From contig CAZNFG010000002.1 in NCBI GenBank assembly GCA_964572605.1, positions 26,895 through 90,894 on the forward strand: a DNA stretch of 64,000 nucleotides, given 5' to 3'. Below are positions 34,129 through 44,264 of this stretch, in pieces; position 1 is the stretch's first letter, and every line of letters begins with the position of its first letter. Source of the stretch: an uncultured Eubacteriales bacterium. Its GTDB lineage: Bacteria > Bacillota > Clostridia > TANB77 > UBA1234. Under the pieces are notes generated by a model that did not search any database, was not told where the DNA came from, and saw only the letters and a program-made list of their open reading frames with translations. The translations under genes and the position numbers were made by a program.

Positions 34129-36041
34129 ATGAATTATAGAATAACAAATGGATCTGTATCTTTTGGTGCAGATACAATATTAGAAGAAATAAATATAGAA
34201 ATTAAAGATAAAGAAAAGATTGCGATTGTAGGACGTAATGGATCTGGAAAGACAACGCTTTTAAATGCTATCATAAATGAAGAATTATTAGAAGAAGGCA
34301 TTGGAGAAGATAAGTTTAATGTATATAGACAAGGCTCTCCTACAATTGGATATTTAAAACAAGTAAGTTTTAATAATGAAGATAAAACATTATTAGATGC
34401 AGTATTAGAAGAATATAAAGATGTTATTGAAGCAGAATTAAAGCTTGCACGTATTGAAGCAGAGCTTGCAAAAAATTCTACAGAAGAATTAGTTAGAGAG
34501 TATGCCAAAACACGTGATAGGTATGAAATGCTTGATGGATATGTGTATAAAAAAGAATATGAAACTATGATTAGAAAATTTGGCTTTTCAAAAGAAGAAG
34601 AAGGTAAAAGAATTTCTGAATTTTCTGGTGGACAAAAAACGAGAATTGCTTTTATAAAACTTTTAATTAGTAAACCTGATATATTGCTTTTAGACGAACC
34701 TACTAATCACTTAGATATTGAGACAATAGAATGGCTTGAGGGATATTTGAGAAATTATAAAAAAGCAATTGTAATAGTATCACATGATAGAATGTTTATA
34801 AATAAAATCGTAAGCAAGATTTATGAAATTGAATACGGAGTTACTACTGAATACAAAGGAAATTATGAAGACTTTGAAAGACAGAAAATAATGAACTATG
34901 AAAAACAACTTAAAGATTATGAATTTCAACAAAAAGAAATTAAGAGATTAATGAGTGTTGTTGAAAGATTTAGATACAAAGCAACAAAAGCTAAAATGGC
35001 ACAATCTAAATTAAAACAAATTGAACACATGGTAAAGATAAAAGAACCAAGCAGATATGATTTAAAAACATTTAAAACAAATTTTGATATTAAAATTGAA
35101 AGTGGAAAAAATGTATTATCTGTGAGTGATTTGAAAATTGGATATGATAATGTCTTGGCAAACGTTTCTTTTAATGTTTTTAAAGGACAAAAGATTGGCA
35201 TTATTGGTGCAAATGGAATAGGTAAATCTACACTTTTAAAAACTCTAATTGGAAAAGTTGAAAAATTACGGTGGAGATTATGAATTTGGATATAATGTTC
35301 AAAAAGAATACTTTGATCAAGATTTAGGTTTTTCTGATGACAATAAAACAATATTTGATGAATTTAAAGATACGTTTTTAAGACTAAATGATAGAGAAGT
35401 AAGAAGTGCACTTGCTGCATTTTTATTTACAGGCGATGATGTATTTAAAGAAATAAAAGTACTTTCTGGTGGAGAAAAAGTAAGACTTAAGCTTTGTGAA
35501 ATATTTAAAAAAGGTCCTAATCTACTAATACTAGATGAGCCTACAAACCATATGGATATACTCGGAAAAGAAAGCCTTGAAAGAATCTTACGGAGAATAT
35601 GAAGGTACAATTATATTTGTATCTCACGATAGATACTTTGTAAATAAAGTTGCAGACAGTTTATTAATATTTGAAAATGATGGTGTAAAATATTTTGGTG
35701 GAAAATATGATGAATACTTAAATAAAAAATATGAAAGTGAACAAATTGAAAAAGACAACATACAAAATGAAAACAATATCGTTAAACCCAAAAAAGAAAA
35801 TGATTATTTTTTGAATAAAGAAAAAATTAAAATGCAAAATAGAATTAAAAAAATAGAATCAGAAATAAGTTTGCGAGAAGAAGAACTTAAAAGTTTAACA
35901 GAAGAAATGGAAAAAGAAGAAGTTTACTCAGACTATATTGCACTAACTAATTTGCAAGAACAAATCAAAGCAAAAAATATTGAAATAGAAGAATTCATAA
36001 ATGAGTGGGGAGAAATAAATAAAAAATTGGGAGATAACTAA
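34129..36041 (+). CDS. ABC-F family ATPase (two nucleotide-binding domains, no TMD; translation-factor/antibiotic-resistance type); frame interrupted twice at CGG 35269-35271 and 35591-35593
   Basis: NBD1 carries GRNGSGKTT...LSGGQKTR...LLLDEPTNHLD. NBD2 carries GANGIGKST, with the continuations GGDYEFGYNVQ and GEYEGTIIFVSHDRYF each in the +1 frame after a cgg. A C-terminal coiled-coil tail is present. The three ORF fragments concatenate to about 637 aa. Confidence 0.8.
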
Positions 36042-36042
36042 T

Positions 36043-36530
36043 ATGTTAGAAAAGAAAGATGCTAGGGAAAAATATCTTTTATGTAGAAAAAATGTATTAA
36101 ATAAAGAAGAAAAATCTGACATAATATTTAATAAAATTATAAATCTTGAAATATATAAAAACACTAATGTTATAGCTTTATATAGTAATTATAAAGATGA
36201 AGTAGCTACAGAAAAATTAATAAAATATTCTTTAGAACAAGGAAAAATAGTTGCACTTCCAAAAGTATTAGATGAATGTAATATGAATTTTTTTGATGCA
36301 GAAGGAAAACTAATTAGTAAAGATTTAATAGAATTAATTATTGTTCCGCGGAGTTTGTTTTGATAGAGAAAAAAACAGAATAGGTTTTGGTAAACGGATA
36401 TTATGATAGATATTTAAAAAATGTTAGTAAAGCTTTCAAAATTGGAATTTGTTTTTCTGAACAACTATGTGAGGATAAAATAAGATGTGAAGAACATGAT
36501 GTGAAGATGGATATGATAATTTCTGATAAA
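36043..36530 (+). CDS. 5-formyltetrahydrofolate cyclo-ligase (MTHFS); frame interrupted twice at CGG 36349-36351 and 36395-36397
   Basis: The product reads ...LIELIIVP then cgg; GVCFDREKNRIGFGK then cgg; GYYDRYLKNV... The conserved MTHFS motif PG.AFD..G.R.G.G.GYYDR is restored only by +1 at both sites. Confidence 0.7.
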
Positions 36531-37351: not shown

Positions 37352-37622
37352 CTAGTTATTATAAGCTTTTAAAACAAGATCAAATTACGAGGCTTATTAT
37401 AACACTAATAGAGATATCTAGCAACAACTTATGTATACAAATTGTATACAAATAGAGTGATTTTTAAAAGCAATTTGCATTTAATGAATTTGGATAAAGA
37501 AAGTTATATATAAATTTTAATAGTGCCGATATTGACTTTTAAACACAACTATAATAAATTCTATTTATAAGAGTACGTATAATAAATGTTAAAAACAAAT
37601 TAATTTTCAAGGAGATGAAATT

Positions 37623-38441
37623 ATGAGTGAAAGCATTAATACCGAAGAGAAAAACGAGAACTCAGAACATTTAAAAATTAATTCACAAGAAACACTTTTT
37701 TCATGGCTTTTATCACTGGGAAAAGCAGGATTTAAAAGTCTTCCACAAATGGGAAAAACATTGGGAATACAACTTGGAATAGTAATCTTATTTCAACTAG
37801 TATTTTGGTGGGAAAAAATAGCACAATTTATCCCAAATTTCATAAAAATGCCAGTGATATTTTTAACTGCTACTTATAACAATATTATTCCAAAGACACT
37901 TTATTGGATTATACTTTTTACTTTTGGAAAAAAATTGCTTTCAAGAATTAGAACTGTTGGATTCAAAAAGGCAATGAGTCCAATACTTTCTACAGTTCCT
38001 GATATAAAAAGAGCATATATTTATCTTAAAGCACAAGCTCTTTCACTACTTATGATTGGTGGTGGAGTTGGGCTGGCAATTGCAAACAATTTTGCTTCGT
38101 ATAGCAGATTTAGCGGGGCAAGAAACAAGTTTGATAAATATTTTATTGTTATTATTATTTCTTTTACGATTTCATATTTATTGGGTGAAGGAAGAAAACA
38201 TTGGATTTTCAAATTCTGCAGACTAATTTCTTCTGATATATCACATTTGTTTAAATTAAAAAATAATTATACAGATAATTACACATATTTAATATCTTCA
38301 GGTTTTGTTCTTGGATTAATTGCTGATGCACCATTAATTTTTATGAAATTAAAGTATGGTGGATATATTCTAGGAATAGTATGCATAATAATTGGTATAG
38401 TTCTAAATGTTAAATATCGTTGGAAAAGGAAAAAAGTATGA
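37623..38441 (+). CDS. hypothetical polytopic membrane protein, first gene of an operon with the SPASM-domain protein
   Basis: 272-aa product with about six TM helices. Its stop overlaps the start of the next gene (ATGA). Confidence 0.55.
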   Translation: MSESINTEEKNENSEHLKINSQETLFSWLLSLGKAGFKSLPQMGKTLGIQLGIVILFQLVFWWEKIAQFIPNFIKMPVIFLTATYNNIIPKTLYWIILFTFGKKLLSRIRTVGFKKAMSPILSTVPDIKRAYIYLKAQALSLLMIGGGVGLAIANNFASYSRFSGARNKFDKYFIVIIISFTISYLLGEGRKHWIFKFCRLISSDISHLFKLKNNYTDNYTYLISSGFVLGLIADAPLIFMKLKYGGYILGIVCIIIGIVLNVKYRWKRKKV

Positions 38442-39526
38442 TAGTTGTGCGTGATAATAAATACCACTATGTGTCAATGTTTGATGAGAAAACGGGGACA
38501 GGTATTCGTAGTAATATTTTAGATGAAAATAATAATGATACGGGAAAAGATCCTTTCATGGGGAGCTTTCCAGAGCTTTTAGATGTTGGTATTATGGGGC
38601 ATTGTGCACATGGCAAGAGCGGTTATTGTTTAAAATCTGGTGTTCAATGTTATCAAAACGGTAATACCATTTATGAAGATAATATGTCTTTTGAAAAGTT
38701 TAAAAGAATAATTGATGAATGTAAGAATAGAACGTTTCAGGTTGCTTTAGGTGGTAGAGGCGATCCAGACATGCATGAAAATATAGAAGAAATTTTAGAA
38801 TATGCAAAAGAAAATAATGTGGTACCTAACTTTACCACATCTGGATTTGGATTAAAGAAAAGTTTATTACCTACAATAAAAAAATGCTGTGGAGCAGTTG
38901 CTGTTAGCTGGTATAGAAATGAATATACACTAAATGCAATTGATATGCTTACTTCATTTGGAATAAAAACAAATATACATTATTGTTTATCAAAAAGTAC
39001 AATTGATGAAGCAATTGATATGATGGAAAATAAAAAATATCCTGATGGGATAAACAGAATGATTTTCCTACTTCATAAACCTGTAGGATTAGGAACAGAA
39101 GAAAATATACTTGATGTGAAAGATGAAAAAGTTGAGCACTTTTTCTCATTATTTGATATTGAGGAACTTGCAAATAAATCGGGATTTGATAGCTGCAGTG
39201 TTCCTGCAATAATAAATTTTACAAAGAACATAAATCCATTATGTATTGAAGCGTGTGAAGCGGGCAGATTTTCTGCATATGTTTCACCAGATTATAAATT
39301 ATATCCTTGTAGCTTTGAGAAAAATTCATATTATGGTATATCTCTTGAAGATAAATCAATTGAAGATGCTTGGAATAGTAAACAATTTAATGAATTTAGA
39401 ATGAGACAAAAAGATAAATGTCCGGGATGTCCTAAATATGATTCATGTTTCGGTGGATGTCCAATTGTTCCTAAAATAACTTTATGTAATAGCAAATATA
39501 AAGATTTAAAGGAGGTCAAAGTATGA
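38438..39526 (+). CDS. SPASM/twitch-domain radical-SAM-like protein with a non-canonical N-terminal Cys triad (C-x7-C-x6-C)
   Basis: The C-terminal region carries C-x2-C-x5-C-x3-C (CPGCPKYDSCFGGCP), a SPASM-type motif. The N-terminal region reads GIMGHCAHGKSGYCLKSGVQC in place of CxxxCxxC. An alternative in-frame ATG lies at 38420. Confidence 0.55.
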   Translation: MIVVRDNKYHYVSMFDEKTGTGIRSNILDENNNDTGKDPFMGSFPELLDVGIMGHCAHGKSGYCLKSGVQCYQNGNTIYEDNMSFEKFKRIIDECKNRTFQVALGGRGDPDMHENIEEILEYAKENNVVPNFTTSGFGLKKSLLPTIKKCCGAVAVSWYRNEYTLNAIDMLTSFGIKTNIHYCLSKSTIDEAIDMMENKKYPDGINRMIFLLHKPVGLGTEENILDVKDEKVEHFFSLFDIEELANKSGFDSCSVPAIINFTKNINPLCIEACEAGRFSAYVSPDYKLYPCSFEKNSYYGISLEDKSIEDAWNSKQFNEFRMRQKDKCPGCPKYDSCFGGCPIVPKITLCNSKYKDLKEVKV

Positions 39527-41010
39527 AGATAAAAGTTGATTATGTTACGAATTCATCTAGTGAAGTTTTTGGAGTTGTTGCAGGAGAAAGTGCCGTGGCT
39601 TCAGGACTTGTTGGAACACTTATAACTTTAATGAAAGGATGCAAAAATTCAAGTGAAGGTATTAGTGGAGAAAACATTCAAACAGATGGTATCGTTATCG
39701 ATTCTACTGAAGCAGCAGAACAACTTGCACAAGCCGCTATTGATGATGCAAAAAGACAAGAAGATATTATAAAGGATGCATATAAGGAAGCTGGTGATAC
39801 TTTAGATTCTGCTAAAAAAACTCTTGAAGAAGAATTAGAAGAATGCAAAAAAGCATGGGAAGAATCTGATAAAACTGCAGACAAAACAGATCCAGGGTAT
39901 GAGAAAGTTAATGAACAGTACAAAGAATATATTGAATATTTAAATTCTCAAATTAAAAAAACAGAATATCAAAAGCAAATGATAGATTATGAAAAAGCCA
40001 AAAAACAGGAAGAACTAGACTCAAAAAATGAATGGGTGACGCAACAACAAAAAGACTATATTGCAGTAAAAGAAGAAAAGGCTATGCTTGAGGCAGTTAA
40101 AAAAGGTTACAATAAACCTGGGTACAATACTGATGCGGTAAAAATAAGACTTGAACAATTAGAACAAAGAGAAAAAGAATTATCTGATACACTAAGCAAA
40201 AATGATGCAAGTTTTGAGTATACTGCAAAAGATAGAGGTACGATTGGTCCTTCGAAAGAGTCACAAGAATTAAGCGAAAAAATAGCTGCAGAAAGAGAAA
40301 GACTTGAGACTGCAAAAAAAGAATCGAATGATAAGAGAAGAAAAGAAATTGAAGCTAGTATGGAAAAAGACATAGAAGAATACAAAGCGCAAATTAAAAA
40401 AGCAAATAGGTATGATATCGCAACAAAGGCTGCAGAGGGAACTCAATTCGGTGCAGATCTTGCAATCGAAGGATTGTCTTATGTTACTGGTCCTGCAGGA
40501 CAGAAAATAAAGCTTGCATATACTGCAGGAAAAAATATAGGAAGTGGTATGGGAGAAGGAATGGCCGATCCTAAAAATGCTGCGAAACATTTGGCAAAAG
40601 GAATATTAAATGCTGGAACAGAGGTATTAAAAGATAAATTTGGAGATGATAAACCATGGCAGGCAGCTGCAACAGAGATATTAAATGAGGGACTTCAAAG
40701 TGGTCTTGACGCTTCTATTCAAGGAAAAGATGTTGTAGATGCAATGGGCAAAGGACTTACTAAAGGTGTGGTTAACGTTGGAACAGATAAAGCATTAGAT
40801 GCGATTAAAGGAAAACTACCAATACCTAAAGGATCTTCAGTAGATGTTCATGACTATAGTGTTGGTAAAATATTAAATAATAACCCACTTACTAAAGGAA
40901 TTTTAAAAACAGGTACAAGAGAAGTCGTAGGATCTCAAATCAAGGATGCCATAAAGGGAGGCGTTGTGGATAAATTAGGTAAAGAGGGTGGATTCATAGA
41001 CGAAGAATAA
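39523..41010 (+). CDS. hypothetical 495-aa protein: N-terminal hydrophobic segment, long Glu/Lys-rich coiled coil, C-terminal Gly/Lys-rich amphipathic repeats
   Basis: Translationally coupled to the SPASM gene (gtATGAag). Carries repeats KGILNAGTEVLKDKF, KGLTKGVVNVGTDKALDAIKGKL and KGILKTGTREVVGSQIKDAIKGG. Confidence 0.5.
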   Translation: MKIKVDYVTNSSSEVFGVVAGESAVASGLVGTLITLMKGCKNSSEGISGENIQTDGIVIDSTEAAEQLAQAAIDDAKRQEDIIKDAYKEAGDTLDSAKKTLEEELEECKKAWEESDKTADKTDPGYEKVNEQYKEYIEYLNSQIKKTEYQKQMIDYEKAKKQEELDSKNEWVTQQQKDYIAVKEEKAMLEAVKKGYNKPGYNTDAVKIRLEQLEQREKELSDTLSKNDASFEYTAKDRGTIGPSKESQELSEKIAAERERLETAKKESNDKRRKEIEASMEKDIEEYKAQIKKANRYDIATKAAEGTQFGADLAIEGLSYVTGPAGQKIKLAYTAGKNIGSGMGEGMADPKNAAKHLAKGILNAGTEVLKDKFGDDKPWQAAATEILNEGLQSGLDASIQGKDVVDAMGKGLTKGVVNVGTDKALDAIKGKLPIPKGSSVDVHDYSVGKILNNNPLTKGILKTGTREVVGSQIKDAIKGGVVDKLGKEGGFIDEE

Positions 41011-41399: not shown

Positions 41400-41643
41400 A
41401 TGCTAGGTGCAATTATACGGATCATTAATTTTACTTGTAGGATTATGTTTAATATTTGATTCAAGAACAATCGTAAAAAAATATTTAAATTTCGGCGAAG
41501 AAAACAATTCCGTTTTAGGCTTAAAAATACTAGGATTTATAATTGTTTTAGTTGGAGGATTAATATTAACTACTGCAAATATTAAACCTAATGAAAATTT
41601 AGAAAATGAAAATCTAGAAAAGATAGAGGGGGAAAATAAATAA
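41400..41643 (+). CDS. small two-TM membrane protein in the valS leader; frame interrupted at CGG 41418-41420
   Basis: ATG 41400 with RBS aaaggaaag gives MLGAII then cgg. The +1 frame GGA gives GSLILLVGLCLIFDSR... Its stop overlaps the valS start. Confidence 0.5.
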
Positions 41644-44264
41644 TGAATATATTAGGCAAAACATATGAACCAAAAGATTTTGAACAAAGAATTTACGACA
41701 ACTGGATGGAAAAAAGATATTTTGAAGCAAACAATAAAAGTGATAAAAAACCATTTACTATTGTTATGCCTCCTCCAAATATAACAGGTGCATTACACAT
41801 GGGACATGGTATGGATAATACACTTCAAGATATTATTATAAGATATAAGAGGATGCAAGGATTTGAAACTCTTTGGGTTCCAGGAGTTGACCATGCTAGT
41901 ATCGCAACAGAAGCAAAAATAGTTGCTAAAATGAAACAAGAAGGAATCACAAAAGAAGACATAGGCAGAGAAAAGTTTTTAGAAAGAGCATGGGCATGGA
42001 AAGAAGAATATGGTGGAACAATTCTAAATCAATTAAAGAAGATGGGTGTATCTTGCGATTGGACAAGAGAAAGTTTTACCATGGATGAAAATCTAACAAG
42101 AGCTGTTAAAAGAGTATTTATAGAATTATATAAAAAAAGTGCTATATATAAAGGCGAAAGAATGATTAACTGGTGCCCAACATGTTTAACTTCAATATCT
42201 GATGCAGAGGTTGAATATGAAGAAGAACCTGGACACTTATGGCATATAGCATACAAGACACCTGATGGTAAAGATAAAATAATTGTTGCAACAACAAGAC
42301 CGGAAACAATGCTTGGAGATACAGCGGTTGCAGTACATCCAGATGATGAAAGATACACACATTTGATTGGAAAAAAAGTTATACTTCCGATTATGAATAA
42401 AGAAATTCCAATTATAGCAGATACATATGTTGAAAAAGATTTTGGAACAGGTGCTGTTAAAATCACACCAGCACATGATCCTAATGATTTTGAAGTAGGG
42501 CTTCGTCATAACTTAGAAGTAATAAAAGTATTTACAGATGATGCACATATGAATAGTTTGGCACCTAAGTATGAAGGTATGGACAGATTAACTGCAAGAA
42601 AAGCAATAGTTGAAGATTTAGAAAAAGGTGGTTTTTTAGTAAAAACAGAAAACTATTCTCATAATGTTGGTAAGTGTTATCGCTGTCATAACTCTATTGA
42701 ACCTACTGTATCTCTTCAATGGTTTGTAAAGATGCAAGAATTGGCAAAACCTGCAAATGATGCTGTAAGAAATGGCGATATGAAATTTGTACCAGAAAGA
42801 TTTGATAAAACATATTTTAGTTTCATGGATAATATACGTGATTGGTGCATATCGAGACAATTATGGTGGGGACATAGAATCCCAGCATATTATTGTAATG
42901 ATTGTGGTGAAATGGTTGTATCAGAAAAAGAAGAAACAGTATGTCCAAAATGCAAAGGAAAAATGCATCAAGATAATGATACATTAGACACATGGTTTAG
43001 TTCGGCATTGTGGCCATTTGCAACTCTTGGTTGGCCAGAAAAAACATTAGACTTTGAAAAGTTTTTCCCAACTAATGTTTTAGTTACAGGTTATGATATA
43101 ATTTTCTTCTGGGTTGCAAGAATGTTGTTTTCTAGCTTAGAGTTTACAGGTAAAGTTCCGTTCACGGATGTATTAATGCATGGATTAGTAAGAGATGAAT
43201 TGGGAAGAAAAATGTCAAAGTCACTTGGTAATGGAGTAGATCCTTTAGATGTAATAAATAGATACGGTGCAGACTCATTTAGATTTTCACTTATTCAAGG
43301 TACCACAGCTGGAAATGATACAAGATATTTACCAGAAAAATTAGAAGTTGGTAGAAACTTTGCAAATAAACTTTGGAATGCATCAAGATTTGCTATGATG
43401 AATTTTGGTGAAGGTAATATCTCTTTTAACGAATCAAAACTTACATTAGAAGATAAGTGGATATTGGGTAAAGCAAATACTGCAACAAAAGAAATTACAG
43501 ATTGTATGGAAAGATATGATTTCGGTATAGCACTACAAAAAATAATGGAATTAATTCGTGATGAAATTTGTGATTGGTATATTGAGATGATTAAACCAAG
43601 ACTATATGATATGACAAATGAAACAAGAAACGAAGCTCTATATACATTAAATGAAGTGTTAAAAATATCTCTTAAATTATTACATCCGTTTATGCCGTTT
43701 ATAACAGAAGAAATATATATGAATTTAAAACATAATGATGAAAGTATTATGATTTCAAAATGGCCAGAATATAATACAGAAAAAGAATATAAAAAAGAAA
43801 AAGAAGAAATTGAAATCATAAAGGAAATAATAAAAGGAGTTAGAAATATTAGAGCAAATATGAATGTTGTACCATCTAGAAAATCAAGCTTAATATTTGT
43901 TACAAAAAATAAAGAAACAATAGAAGAAGGAAAATCATTCTTAGAAAAATTAGCATATGCAGATGAAATAATAGTAAAAGATAGTAAAGTTGGTATACCA
44001 GAAAATGCGATTTCACTTGCAGCACCAGGAATGGAAATATTTATTCCATTTAATGAACTAATAGATATATCTGCAGAAATTGAAAGATTAGAAAAAGAAG
44101 AATTAACATATAAAAATGAAATAGCAAGAGTAGAGAAAATGTTATCTAATGAAGGTTTTGTTGCAAAAGCACCAAAAGAAAAAATAGAAGAAGAAAATGC
44201 AAAAAAAATAAAGTATGAAGAGCTACTTAAGAAAACAGAAGCTAGAATAAAAGAATTAAAATAA
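41643..44264 (+). CDS. valS: valine--tRNA ligase ValS
   Basis: HIGH motif PPPNITGALHMGHG, KMSKS motif, editing domain and a C-terminal coiled coil. 873 aa. Confidence 0.95.
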   Translation: MNILGKTYEPKDFEQRIYDNWMEKRYFEANNKSDKKPFTIVMPPPNITGALHMGHGMDNTLQDIIIRYKRMQGFETLWVPGVDHASIATEAKIVAKMKQEGITKEDIGREKFLERAWAWKEEYGGTILNQLKKMGVSCDWTRESFTMDENLTRAVKRVFIELYKKSAIYKGERMINWCPTCLTSISDAEVEYEEEPGHLWHIAYKTPDGKDKIIVATTRPETMLGDTAVAVHPDDERYTHLIGKKVILPIMNKEIPIIADTYVEKDFGTGAVKITPAHDPNDFEVGLRHNLEVIKVFTDDAHMNSLAPKYEGMDRLTARKAIVEDLEKGGFLVKTENYSHNVGKCYRCHNSIEPTVSLQWFVKMQELAKPANDAVRNGDMKFVPERFDKTYFSFMDNIRDWCISRQLWWGHRIPAYYCNDCGEMVVSEKEETVCPKCKGKMHQDNDTLDTWFSSALWPFATLGWPEKTLDFEKFFPTNVLVTGYDIIFFWVARMLFSSLEFTGKVPFTDVLMHGLVRDELGRKMSKSLGNGVDPLDVINRYGADSFRFSLIQGTTAGNDTRYLPEKLEVGRNFANKLWNASRFAMMNFGEGNISFNESKLTLEDKWILGKANTATKEITDCMERYDFGIALQKIMELIRDEICDWYIEMIKPRLYDMTNETRNEALYTLNEVLKISLKLLHPFMPFITEEIYMNLKHNDESIMISKWPEYNTEKEYKKEKEEIEIIKEIIKGVRNIRANMNVVPSRKSSLIFVTKNKETIEEGKSFLEKLAYADEIIVKDSKVGIPENAISLAAPGMEIFIPFNELIDISAEIERLEKEELTYKNEIARVEKMLSNEGFVAKAPKEKIEEENAKKIKYEELLKKTEARIKELK

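Follow-up and report, generated by a model that had tools for sequence, protein, structure and literature searches.

Three adjacent genes at 37623-41010 of a 64,000-nucleotide stretch of the genome of an uncultured Eubacteriales bacterium (hereafter the window, i.e., the whole stretch analysed, with a G+C content of ~30%) raise a question of both chemistry and partnership, namely what a protein with a SPASM domain does when the Cys triad of radical S-adenosylmethionine (SAM) enzymes is missing from its usual spacing, and on what it acts. Of the answers considered, tag-directed radical modification of whole proteins by a dedicated radical SAM/SPASM enzyme appears as the best explanation, held with slightly better than even confidence. 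The system to which the three genes belong, where an enzyme with a rebuilt cluster-binding site is encoded beside genes sharing a 16-residue tag, is large, occurs in bacteria, plasmids and phages, and is apparently undescribed. None of the enzyme clade, the tag, the membrane protein and the coiled-coil protein of the window has a specific family in Pfam 2025, NCBIfam 20.0, PADLOC 2.0 or PHROGs v4, and no description of the tag or of a CX7CX6C motif system was found in the searched literature, the coverage of which is incomplete, leaving room for an earlier description elsewhere.

Operon layout and the N-terminal tag

An earlier note on the window, made from its letters alone, had proposed an operon of three genes with two ATGA overlaps, which is borne out by the open reading frames (ORFs) and the sequence. 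The three ORFs, co-directional and on the + strand, encode 272, 362 and 495 residues, in an order which is conserved among relatives:

37610..37615, + strand: Shine-Dalgarno-like AGGAGA of the membrane protein gene, 7 nucleotides 5' of its ATG at 37623 (direct sequence reading)
37623..38441, + strand: membrane protein gene, 272 residues, polytopic, unnamed family
38438..39526, + strand: gene of the radical SAM/SPASM-fold enzyme, 362 residues from the ATG, with a remodelled cluster-binding loop
39510..39515, + strand: Shine-Dalgarno AGGAGG of the tagged gene, inside the 3' end of the enzyme gene (direct sequence reading)
39523..41010, + strand: gene of the third (tagged) protein, 495 residues
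39523..39570, + strand: N-terminal 16-residue tag MKIKVDYVTNSSSEVF, residues 1-16 of the third protein, its ATG overlapping the enzyme stop

The membrane gene and the enzyme gene overlap through ATG 38438-40 and TGA 38439-41, the enzyme gene and the tagged gene through ATG 39523-25 and TGA 39524-26. An upstream TTG at 38420 is also possible as the enzyme start; M1 of the ATG form is invariant among homologues.

The tag at the start of the third protein, overlooked in the first reading, follows the family consensus MK[IF]R-x-DFVTNSSSSSF; ORFs downstream of the enzyme mostly begin MK[IF]R-x-DFVTNSSS[SET]SF, and the wider pattern reads M-K-[IFV]-[RK]-x-D-[FYH]-V-T-N-S-S-S-[SET]-x-[FY]. Membership was defined by M-K-x-[RK]-x-D-[FYH]-V-T-N-S-S-S together with adjacency to the enzyme gene on the same strand, both of which the third protein exhibits. 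When 81 sources were scanned with the pattern, 95 tagged ORFs were found in 78 of them, all on the strand of the enzyme and all at the start of an ORF; neither the opposite strand nor any internal position had one. Two of the three other sources have a variant tag, MKIRTGFVTNSSSYSS, and the contig of the third ends 54 nucleotides past the enzyme gene; a tagged gene is present on the enzyme's strand in 80/80 informative genome loci, and 68/81 downstream tagged genes begin at most 150 nucleotides from the end of the enzyme match. The linkage is also seen when starting from a tagged protein (L083).

Along the tag, M1, K2, T9, N10, S11 and S12 are invariant, D6, V8 and S13 are conserved at 90% or more, residue 7 is F, Y or H throughout, and residue 16 is F or Y with few exceptions, this conservation being partly forced by the scan pattern at M1 (alternative starts are written M), K2, T9, N10 and S12 (narrow classes). 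The same motif appears in a listing made without the pattern filter, where the ORF directly 3' of the enzyme gene carries the tag at its start in most of 80 related loci, and a GGAGG-like ribosome-binding site precedes the tag ATG in most of the related loci printed. Across loci, the Ser codons of the tag alternate between the TCN and AGY boxes; selection therefore acts on the peptide, not on DNA or RNA. When 1.84 billion cluster representatives were searched exhaustively with a profile (E <= 1e-3, clusters at 50% identity), 10,650 tagged protein clusters were returned; this search was used instead of a word-indexed one with a 42-residue tag profile, which had yielded no more than 57 proteins, short or truncated, and nothing on domains. 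The tag stands at residue 1 in 125 of the 143 top profile matches, and all but one of the rest have M-K immediately before it, a sign of miscalled starts or fused ORFs. Two tag copies each are found in P0336, P0298, P0342 and P0396, all of which look like fused adjacent ORFs except P0336.

As far as alignments tell, the tag is the only element shared by the tagged proteins, which beyond residue 16 are unrelated. The 88 tagged proteins fall into 34 BLAST-unrelated groups of 84-1062 residues (median partner length 342), Pfam domains are found in only ~13 of them, namely a PQQ_2 propeller, a BspA-type leucine-rich repeat (LRR_5) and BRCT, and tagged partners from Agrobacterium and Firmicutes align only over residues 1-25. 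The third protein of the window belongs to the largest body group (24 loci) and continues after the tag as follows:

39571..39633, + strand: hydrophobic Ala/Gly-rich segment right after the tag (Kyte-Doolittle 1.6, residues 18-36)
39697..40410, + strand: charged coiled-coil-like region, ~residues 59-296 (K 13%, E 11%)
40420..41010, + strand: C-terminal Gly/Lys-rich region and stop codon (alignment of 19 group members)

Where the earlier note had seen a hydrophobic N-terminus, residues 1-16 are the hydrophilic conserved tag, and a hydrophobic segment does follow from about residue 17; this possible transmembrane helix keeps its character across the 24-member group. The same note had considered the 495-residue protein atypical as a short precursor; its N-terminal tag, the true hallmark of the system, makes it a probable substrate. 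The C-terminal region, with VTGPAG..IK.AY..GK and ADP.NA..HLAKG as conserved motifs in the 19-member alignment, has no match in Pfam, NCBIfam or the PDB. A PDB profile search with the third protein returned coiled coils only, and matches to SMC (7.7e-6), Rad50 and the ZorA coiled coil (2.7e-4) were discarded as effects of coiled-coil composition.

The membrane gene is restricted to 27/81 sources. Its protein family comprises 146 members, all annotated as hypothetical, and no Pfam domain, PDB relative or convincing structural neighbour was found for it. In loci with the membrane gene, a hydrophobic segment follows the tag in 26/26 tagged proteins (mean Kyte-Doolittle 1.56), against a mean of -0.04 in loci without it (two exceptions out of 66, one of them on a contig starting inside the enzyme gene). 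With the membrane gene tied in this way to tagged proteins bearing a hydrophobic segment, the core of the system is therefore the enzyme plus at least one tagged protein; of the three-gene unit as first described, the conserved order stands, whereas the membrane gene is an addition of one clade. By its distribution, this gene is a likely clade-specific accessory for membrane-anchored tagged proteins, i.e., the putative substrates. In 12 loci (L011 8489-9379, L012 8539-9480 and 10 others), a fourth co-directional gene of ~313 residues follows the membrane-type tagged gene; its product has a sub-threshold match to EspG (type VII secretion chaperones, PF14011; 9e-6, 25.9 versus 27 bits), and it is absent from this window.

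Fold and cluster-binding site of the enzyme

The middle protein was initially read as a SPASM protein with a C-x7-C-x6-C site and no CxxxCxxC motif, and all three elements withstand closer analysis, CX3CX2C being found nowhere in its sequence. Two SPASM hidden Markov models (HMMs) pass their curated cut-offs, i.e., PF13186 (34.1 versus 21.5 bits) and TIGR04085 (36.3 versus 27 bits), and the partial (beta/alpha)6 TIM-barrel core of the radical SAM superfamily is present. The elements of interest are the following:

38603..38650, + strand: C56-x7-C64-x6-C71 site with invariant H58, G68 and Y72, directly after beta-strand 1 (alignment)
38750..38767, + strand: GGRGDP, counterpart of the 'GGE' SAM-binding motif, end of beta-strand 2 (GGRGD in 120/120 homologues)
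39194..39487, + strand: SPASM region with eight conserved Cys, C253, C273, C291, C328, C331, C337, C341 and C350 (alignment, HMMs)

The AlphaFold2 model of the enzyme is confident (predicted local distance difference test 91.5, predicted template modelling score 0.90), and the absence of a radical SAM barrel, by which the first reading could have failed, is contradicted by both the predicted model and structure comparisons. The nearest solved structures, with their comparison values, are:

SuiB, 25.3
SkfB, 23.0
PqqE, 20.8
anSME, 20.7
ChlB, 20.0
CteB, 19.6

All six are radical SAM/SPASM peptide or protein maturases, with which Foldseek concurs; the structural scores of the small-molecule radical SAM enzymes BlsE, viperin and MoaA are a little to clearly lower. 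In the model, a region of ~45 residues with three short strands (2-6, 11-15 and 22-24) precedes the barrel. As a side observation, the enzyme N-terminus MIVVRDNKYHYVSMF (38438-38482; M1 and D6 invariant across the family) is similar to the beginning of the tag (39523-39570) in the arrangement M-x4-D6...F, a likeness which is either a coincidence or may hint at a pseudo-substrate or a strand-pairing element.

The family to which the enzyme belongs is large and scarcely annotated. Out of 4777 database matches at E <= 1e-3, the best 120 homologues (54-99% identity) bear no annotation more specific than 'radical SAM protein' or 'SPASM domain-containing protein'; PHROG 7293, a family without assigned function, matches at 1e-25, and all specific NCBIfam maturase models score far under their cut-offs. 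The view that the assemblage matches no described system is supported in that no curated family fits.

The cluster-binding site itself, HCAHGKSGYCLKSGVQC at 38600-38650 (C56-x7-C64-x6-C71), is strictly kept: in a 22-sequence alignment, C56, H58, C64, G68, C71, Y72 and Q73 are invariant, the spacing C-x7-C-x6-C is present in 119/120 best homologues, the sole exception being an N-terminally truncated fragment, and the fuller pattern C-x-H...C-x6-CYQ in 118/120 homologues and 78/80 genome loci. As such, the non-canonical triad is real and a property of the whole family. In the model, it sits on the loop directly after beta-strand 1, i.e., at the canonical location. Alignment by BLASTP (9e-66) and MAFFT with relatives that have a canonical triad places C64 at Cys1, G68 at the position of Cys2, C71 at Cys3 and Y72 at the aromatic residue after Cys3, with C56 and H58 falling in an 8-residue insertion, MGHCAHGK (residues 53-60), right after beta-strand 1. 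The x6 spacing of C64 and C71 is exactly the canonical Cys1-Cys3 distance; therefore, the site is best described as a ligand swap and not as an unrelated motif, where, judging from the alignment, the middle Cys would have been lost and an upstream Cys gained. These canonical-triad relatives, on alphaproteobacterial megaplasmids (Agrobacterium pAt, Rhizobium, Rhodobacter), share 36-37% identity over 95-98% of the length and have CX3CX2C in the form WCDKGCVFCY, while relatives in T4-like Klebsiella/Enterobacter phages (172 records, ~30% identity) have TKCNGPAGKLCGFCY, i.e., CX7CX2C. No report of CX7CX6C was found in the searched literature.

In the PDB profile alignment, GGRGDP lies opposite SGGEP of PqqE, with an Arg inserted; the canonical-triad relatives have GGGNP at this place, and the residues of LGGRGD as well as most of NFTTSG are invariant in the 22-sequence alignment. 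In the same alignment, seven of the eight SPASM Cys are invariant and C331 is conserved at 90% or more. The SPASM motif proper, CPGCPKYDSCFGGCP (C328-x2-C331-x5-C337-x3-C341), is found as CX2CX5CX3C in 107/120 homologues, the remainder departing from the exact spacing, mostly as a CX2CX5CX2C variant. Eight such Cys would be enough for two fully Cys-ligated auxiliary [4Fe-4S] clusters.

Distribution in genomes, phages and plasmids

Relatives of the enzyme were found in at least 252 species-representative genomes, the hosts being mostly Clostridia, Erysipelotrichaceae, Peptococcaceae and Selenomonadales, with some bins labelled Bacteroidales, Anaerolineae or Coriobacteriales. The flanking survey revealed no further conserved partner: among 116 Pfam families in 135 neighbours, none recurs more than 4 times. 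Fic (4), WYL (3) and a few DRT/NERD genes are included, which hints at variable islands without being decisive. With flanks so heterogeneous, the cassette is a self-contained unit that moves from one context to another. One 58-residue tagged ORF (L082 8001-8177), probably truncated, lies beside Fic and SIR2 genes.

Phages are heavily represented. The enzyme is encoded at 47-56% identity by 271 IMG/VR viral contigs, 80 loci of which were kept and searched for tagged genes within 5 kb: the C-x7-C-x6-C loop is present in 79/80 and tagged genes in 72/80, 270 in total, none of them on the other strand, a locus having 8 at most and the median length being 138 residues. On these large viral contigs of 60-250 kb (L089-L168), the C-x7-C-x6-C enzyme is followed by tandem arrays of small tagged genes (90-195 residues), and one viral contig (86-133 kb) has seven tagged genes in a long co-directional array of small genes. 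This tagged array (L169 11811-15178) lies near genes for an RNA ligase, a Pnk-like kinase/HD protein, a Phage_YunG-like protein and a DNA methylase. A tagged-protein query against GenBank phages gave no match, probably owing to low-complexity masking and the bias of the database to phages of cultured hosts. Klebsiella phage Matisse gp164 (L081 3932-5077) and 171 other Straboviridae records encode the 30%-identical CX7CX2C relative with SPASM, the function of which is unannotated; no tagged gene was found near Matisse gp164 in the 9-kb locus examined.

The enzyme-tag linkage holds across phyla, as it recurs on Agrobacterium, Rhodobacter and Rhizobium plasmids. There, the operon-like cassette (L086 2583-7035, Agrobacterium tumefaciens pAt; L087; L088) encodes (i) an 889-residue protein combining a SMEK nuclease domain (PADLOC Aga_REase, 2.5e-49) with an Avs2-like STAND NTPase region (1.5e-21), (ii) a 122-residue protein, (iii) a tagged 132-residue protein, which begins MKLKMDFVSNSSSTSF, and (iv) the enzyme; it adjoins an integrase and an LmuA-like 1280-residue protein. 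At least two forms of the enzyme, CX3CX2C and C-x7-C-x6-C, thus adjoin the same tag. This cassette could be an undescribed Avs-type defence variant using the tag/enzyme pair, and the phage arrays together with the Avs-like neighbour suggest a link to phage-host conflict. On the three proteins of the window, PADLOC 2.0 detected no defence system, giving only weak matches of pVip to the radical-SAM core (3e-5) and of ZorA to the coiled coil (2.7e-4).

In the window, the operon is flanked by housekeeping genes. Its upstream boundary is a divergent NUDIX-like gene, its downstream boundary a T-box leader preceding valS. This leader (RF00230, 41100-41348, + strand; 88 bits, E 1e-19) is overlooked by a default scan at the gathering threshold, the gathering score being 93 bits; it is followed by a small ORF for 78 hydrophobic residues (41407-41643), the stop of which overlaps the start of valS (TAATG; valS 41643-44264). 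Further upstream on the + strand (34129-36041), an ABC-F-type ATPase is apparently broken into overlapping ORFs (34129-35283, 35249-35602 and 35535-36041), which indicates two frameshifts, i.e., a pseudogene or assembly errors; the 106-residue ORF after it (36043-36363) is presumably a truncated 5-formyltetrahydrofolate cyclo-ligase, judged by eye only.

Proposed function and rival explanations

In the proposed mechanism, the enzyme would recognise the 16-residue N-terminal tag of the proteins encoded beside it, the KIxxDxV part binding as an added beta-strand that extends the short N-terminal sheet of the enzyme, and would thereby place the invariant T-N-S-S-S loop in the active site. The radical-SAM cluster would be held by C64, C71 and C56, possibly with H58, C56 replacing the middle Cys that is now Gly68; a 5'-deoxyadenosyl radical would abstract hydrogen at the loop and the two auxiliary SPASM clusters would take the second electron, the product being a tag residue in oxidised or cross-linked form. 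In the window, the substrate would be the 495-residue protein, in which the tag is followed by a hydrophobic anchor, a coiled coil and the Gly/Lys-rich C-terminal region, with the upstream polytopic protein as its membrane partner. The tag as substrate, its binding mode, SAM cleavage and the chemistry that follows are inferred. Candidate tag chemistries by analogy with SPASM enzymes are (i) conversion of Ser to formylglycine, as in anSME, (ii) an ether or C-C cross-link, and (iii) epimerisation. A cross-link could for instance join the position-7 aromatic to T9.

The enzyme is catalytically credible because of the confident model, the eight auxiliary Cys, the canonical-triad relatives, the mapping of C64 and C71, and the precedent of PoyC, which with its CX7CX2C triad yields 5'-deoxyadenosine, so that an altered triad spacing is compatible with SAM cleavage (PMC5682303). 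That one enzyme can have several tagged paralogues next to it matches the arrangement of maturases with precursor sets. Several points nonetheless weigh against a tag-modifying radical enzyme. Radical_SAM PF04055 stays below its gathering threshold on the enzyme (26.2 versus 29.5 bits, E 1e-5, residues 71-150), the GGE motif is altered to GGRGDP, the invariant H58 could be a fourth ligand leaving no open iron for SAM, and Pfam detects no PqqD-like recognition element of peptides that are made on the ribosome and modified after translation (RiPPs) in the enzyme. On the side of the tag, no enzyme gene lies within 8 kb of the tagged gene of L082, tagged genes therefore being able to be remote from the enzyme, or to decay; in P0336, a genuinely internal copy (WPEDFVTNSSSTSF) stands at the head of a ~105-residue domain that is repeated, and in some small families the tag resembles the opening strand and loop of a compact domain, all of which would suit a structural or catalytic motif as well. 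Enzyme residue 207 (39056-39058) and tag residue 14 (39562-39564) vary together, R207 being paired with E14 or T14 (membrane type) and S14 mostly with A207; this covariation was set aside as a contact, for it is confounded by phylogeny.

Known systems offer partial likenesses. The nearest functional analogue is anSME/AtsB (PDB 4k36-4k39), a SPASM enzyme which lacks a RiPP recognition element and targets a motif with Ser in whole proteins; its eight auxiliary-cluster Cys have their counterparts, in number and order, in the window enzyme. However, the enzyme scores 18.2 bits with the anSME HMM TIGR03942 against a cut-off of 349 and thus falls outside this family, and while anSME combines a canonical CX3CX2C with the substrate motif C/S-x-P/A-x-R inside sulfatases, the window system has the N-terminal MKIRTDFVTNSSSSSF, no sulfatase domain among the 88 tagged partners and no S-x-P-x-R in the tag. 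SuiB is the nearest structure, but the enzyme likewise falls outside the SuiB family. The RiPP maturases SuiB/StrB, SkfB, CteB, PqqE and ChlB have a PqqD-like recognition element, short precursors (tens of residues) and a canonical triad; in the window system, no such element was detected, only the extreme N-terminus is conserved, and a complete protein, up to 1062 residues long, stands in for the 'core'. In PoyC and PoyB, a triad of expanded spacing, the very CX7CX2C of the phage relatives, still supports SAM cleavage (PMC5682303, PMC11285071), but both are B12-binding methyltransferases without SPASM that keep the CX2C pair, whereas in the window enzyme the middle Cys is gone and an upstream Cys has been recruited. 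The alphaproteobacterial cassette (A. tumefaciens pAt, Rhodobacter sp. CZR27) has an enzyme 36% identical over full length (9e-66) and an adjacent tagged protein; it differs by its canonical triad, the lack of a membrane gene and of a coiled-coil partner, and its Avs-like defence gene, and its proteins are annotated only as 'radical SAM protein' and 'hypothetical'.

One challenge to radical chemistry, suggested in the earlier note, is that of a pseudo-radical-SAM protein, in which C56, H58, C64 and C71 would hold a fully ligated cluster unable to bind SAM, the protein being a non-radical redox enzyme or a Fe-S-dependent receptor or adaptor that sorts, assembles or chaperones tagged proteins. 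The loss of the middle canonical Cys and the invariance of H58 in the clade speak for it, as do the sub-threshold Radical_SAM match, the altered GGE motif and the existence of curated pseudo-radical-SAM/SPASM families, one of which, TIGR04347, matches weakly (0.0023). Those families, i.e., TIGR04347 (Haloarchaea) and spiro-SPASM TIGR04321, combine SPASM with a non-canonical or absent triad; yet the window enzyme scores far under their cut-offs (17.3 versus 525 and 25.4 versus 250 bits), the taxa and partners differ, and its three Cys are kept at the canonical site. The suggestion is further weakened by the 36%-identical Alphaproteobacteria relatives that keep CX3CX2C beside the same tag and by the alignment of C64 and C71 to Cys1 and Cys3; with phage relatives having CX7CX2C, the ancestral activity was therefore most likely SAM-dependent. 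Besides, the eight auxiliary Cys and barrel motifs are kept at 54-74% identity, a degree of constraint unusual for a protein that is only an adaptor, all of which makes this explanation rather unlikely. Similarly improbable is that the tag is no substrate at all but an intrinsic functional motif, i.e., a beta-strand and Ser-rich loop for ligand binding, nucleophilic attack or assembly, the enzyme making a small molecule or cofactor bound by the loop or acting on something else. A Ser-rich loop that follows a first strand is a typical phosphate-binding element, the tag runs into a predicted strand of a compact domain in an abundant ~120-residue family and in a 165-residue N-domain family, and P0336 repeats tag and domain internally. 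Conversely, the tag also precedes a hydrophobic helix with coiled coil and other unrelated bodies, with no common domain to complete a fold; a loop motif would require neither the fixed M1-K2 nor the constant distance from the N-terminus; and the nearest structural relatives are mostly peptide or protein maturases, ahead of BlsE, viperin and MoaA.

Less probable still is a RiPP-like pathway, where the N-terminal 16-mer or a slightly longer peptide would be modified, cleaved and released, with the bodies as carriers and the membrane protein as exporter. Although an enzyme with several 'precursors' and a membrane protein resembles RiPP clusters, and the closest structures are RiPP maturases, no conserved protease or ABC/MFS exporter was found nearby in the 135 flanking genes surveyed, the bodies are long, partly folded (leucine-rich repeat, propeller, BRCT) and conserved within each group, which carriers do not need, and the products would be nearly one peptide, so that arrays of 7-8 copies are hard to explain. 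That the three genes are chance neighbours, or the Cys pattern a chance feature of a single sequence, is already refuted, with no point found in its favour, by the recurrence of the order membrane gene-enzyme-tagged gene in at least 24 genome loci from different families, by ATGA overlaps at both junctions and by the Cys pattern in 119/120 homologues.

Modification of the tag by the adjacent enzyme is therefore the reading retained, and what makes the system unusual is that unrelated full-length proteins share a portable N-terminal tag, that a cluster ligand has migrated and that phages are heavily represented. In its widest form, considered possible though a little short of an even chance, it would be an unrecognised whole-protein modification, whereby the enzyme converts a universal tag on >10,000 otherwise unrelated protein families and is used by both sides of phage-host conflict. 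In this wide form, the enzyme occurs in large Firmicute phages together with arrays of small tagged proteins (up to 8), bacteria put the tag on leucine-rich repeat, propeller, BRCT and membrane coiled-coil proteins, Alphaproteobacteria place the pair in one cassette with an Avs-like nuclease-NTPase, and the rebuilt Firmicute/phage site swaps the middle Cys ligand for a Cys, possibly a His, in the insertion. If the tag is the substrate, radical-SAM modification would be aimed at the extreme N-terminus of full-length proteins via a portable 16-residue tag, on a scale rivalling major RiPP classes (10,650 clusters, at least 252 genomes and 271 viral contigs), and closely related enzymes with CX3CX2C, CX7CX2C or C-x7-C-x6-C would let the migration of a cluster ligand be studied as a natural experiment. 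Being short and portable and served by a single modifying enzyme, such a tag could also be of use as a protein-engineering handle. With the tag as substrate, the phage arrays and the Avs-like neighbour would make a role in phage-host conflict directly testable.

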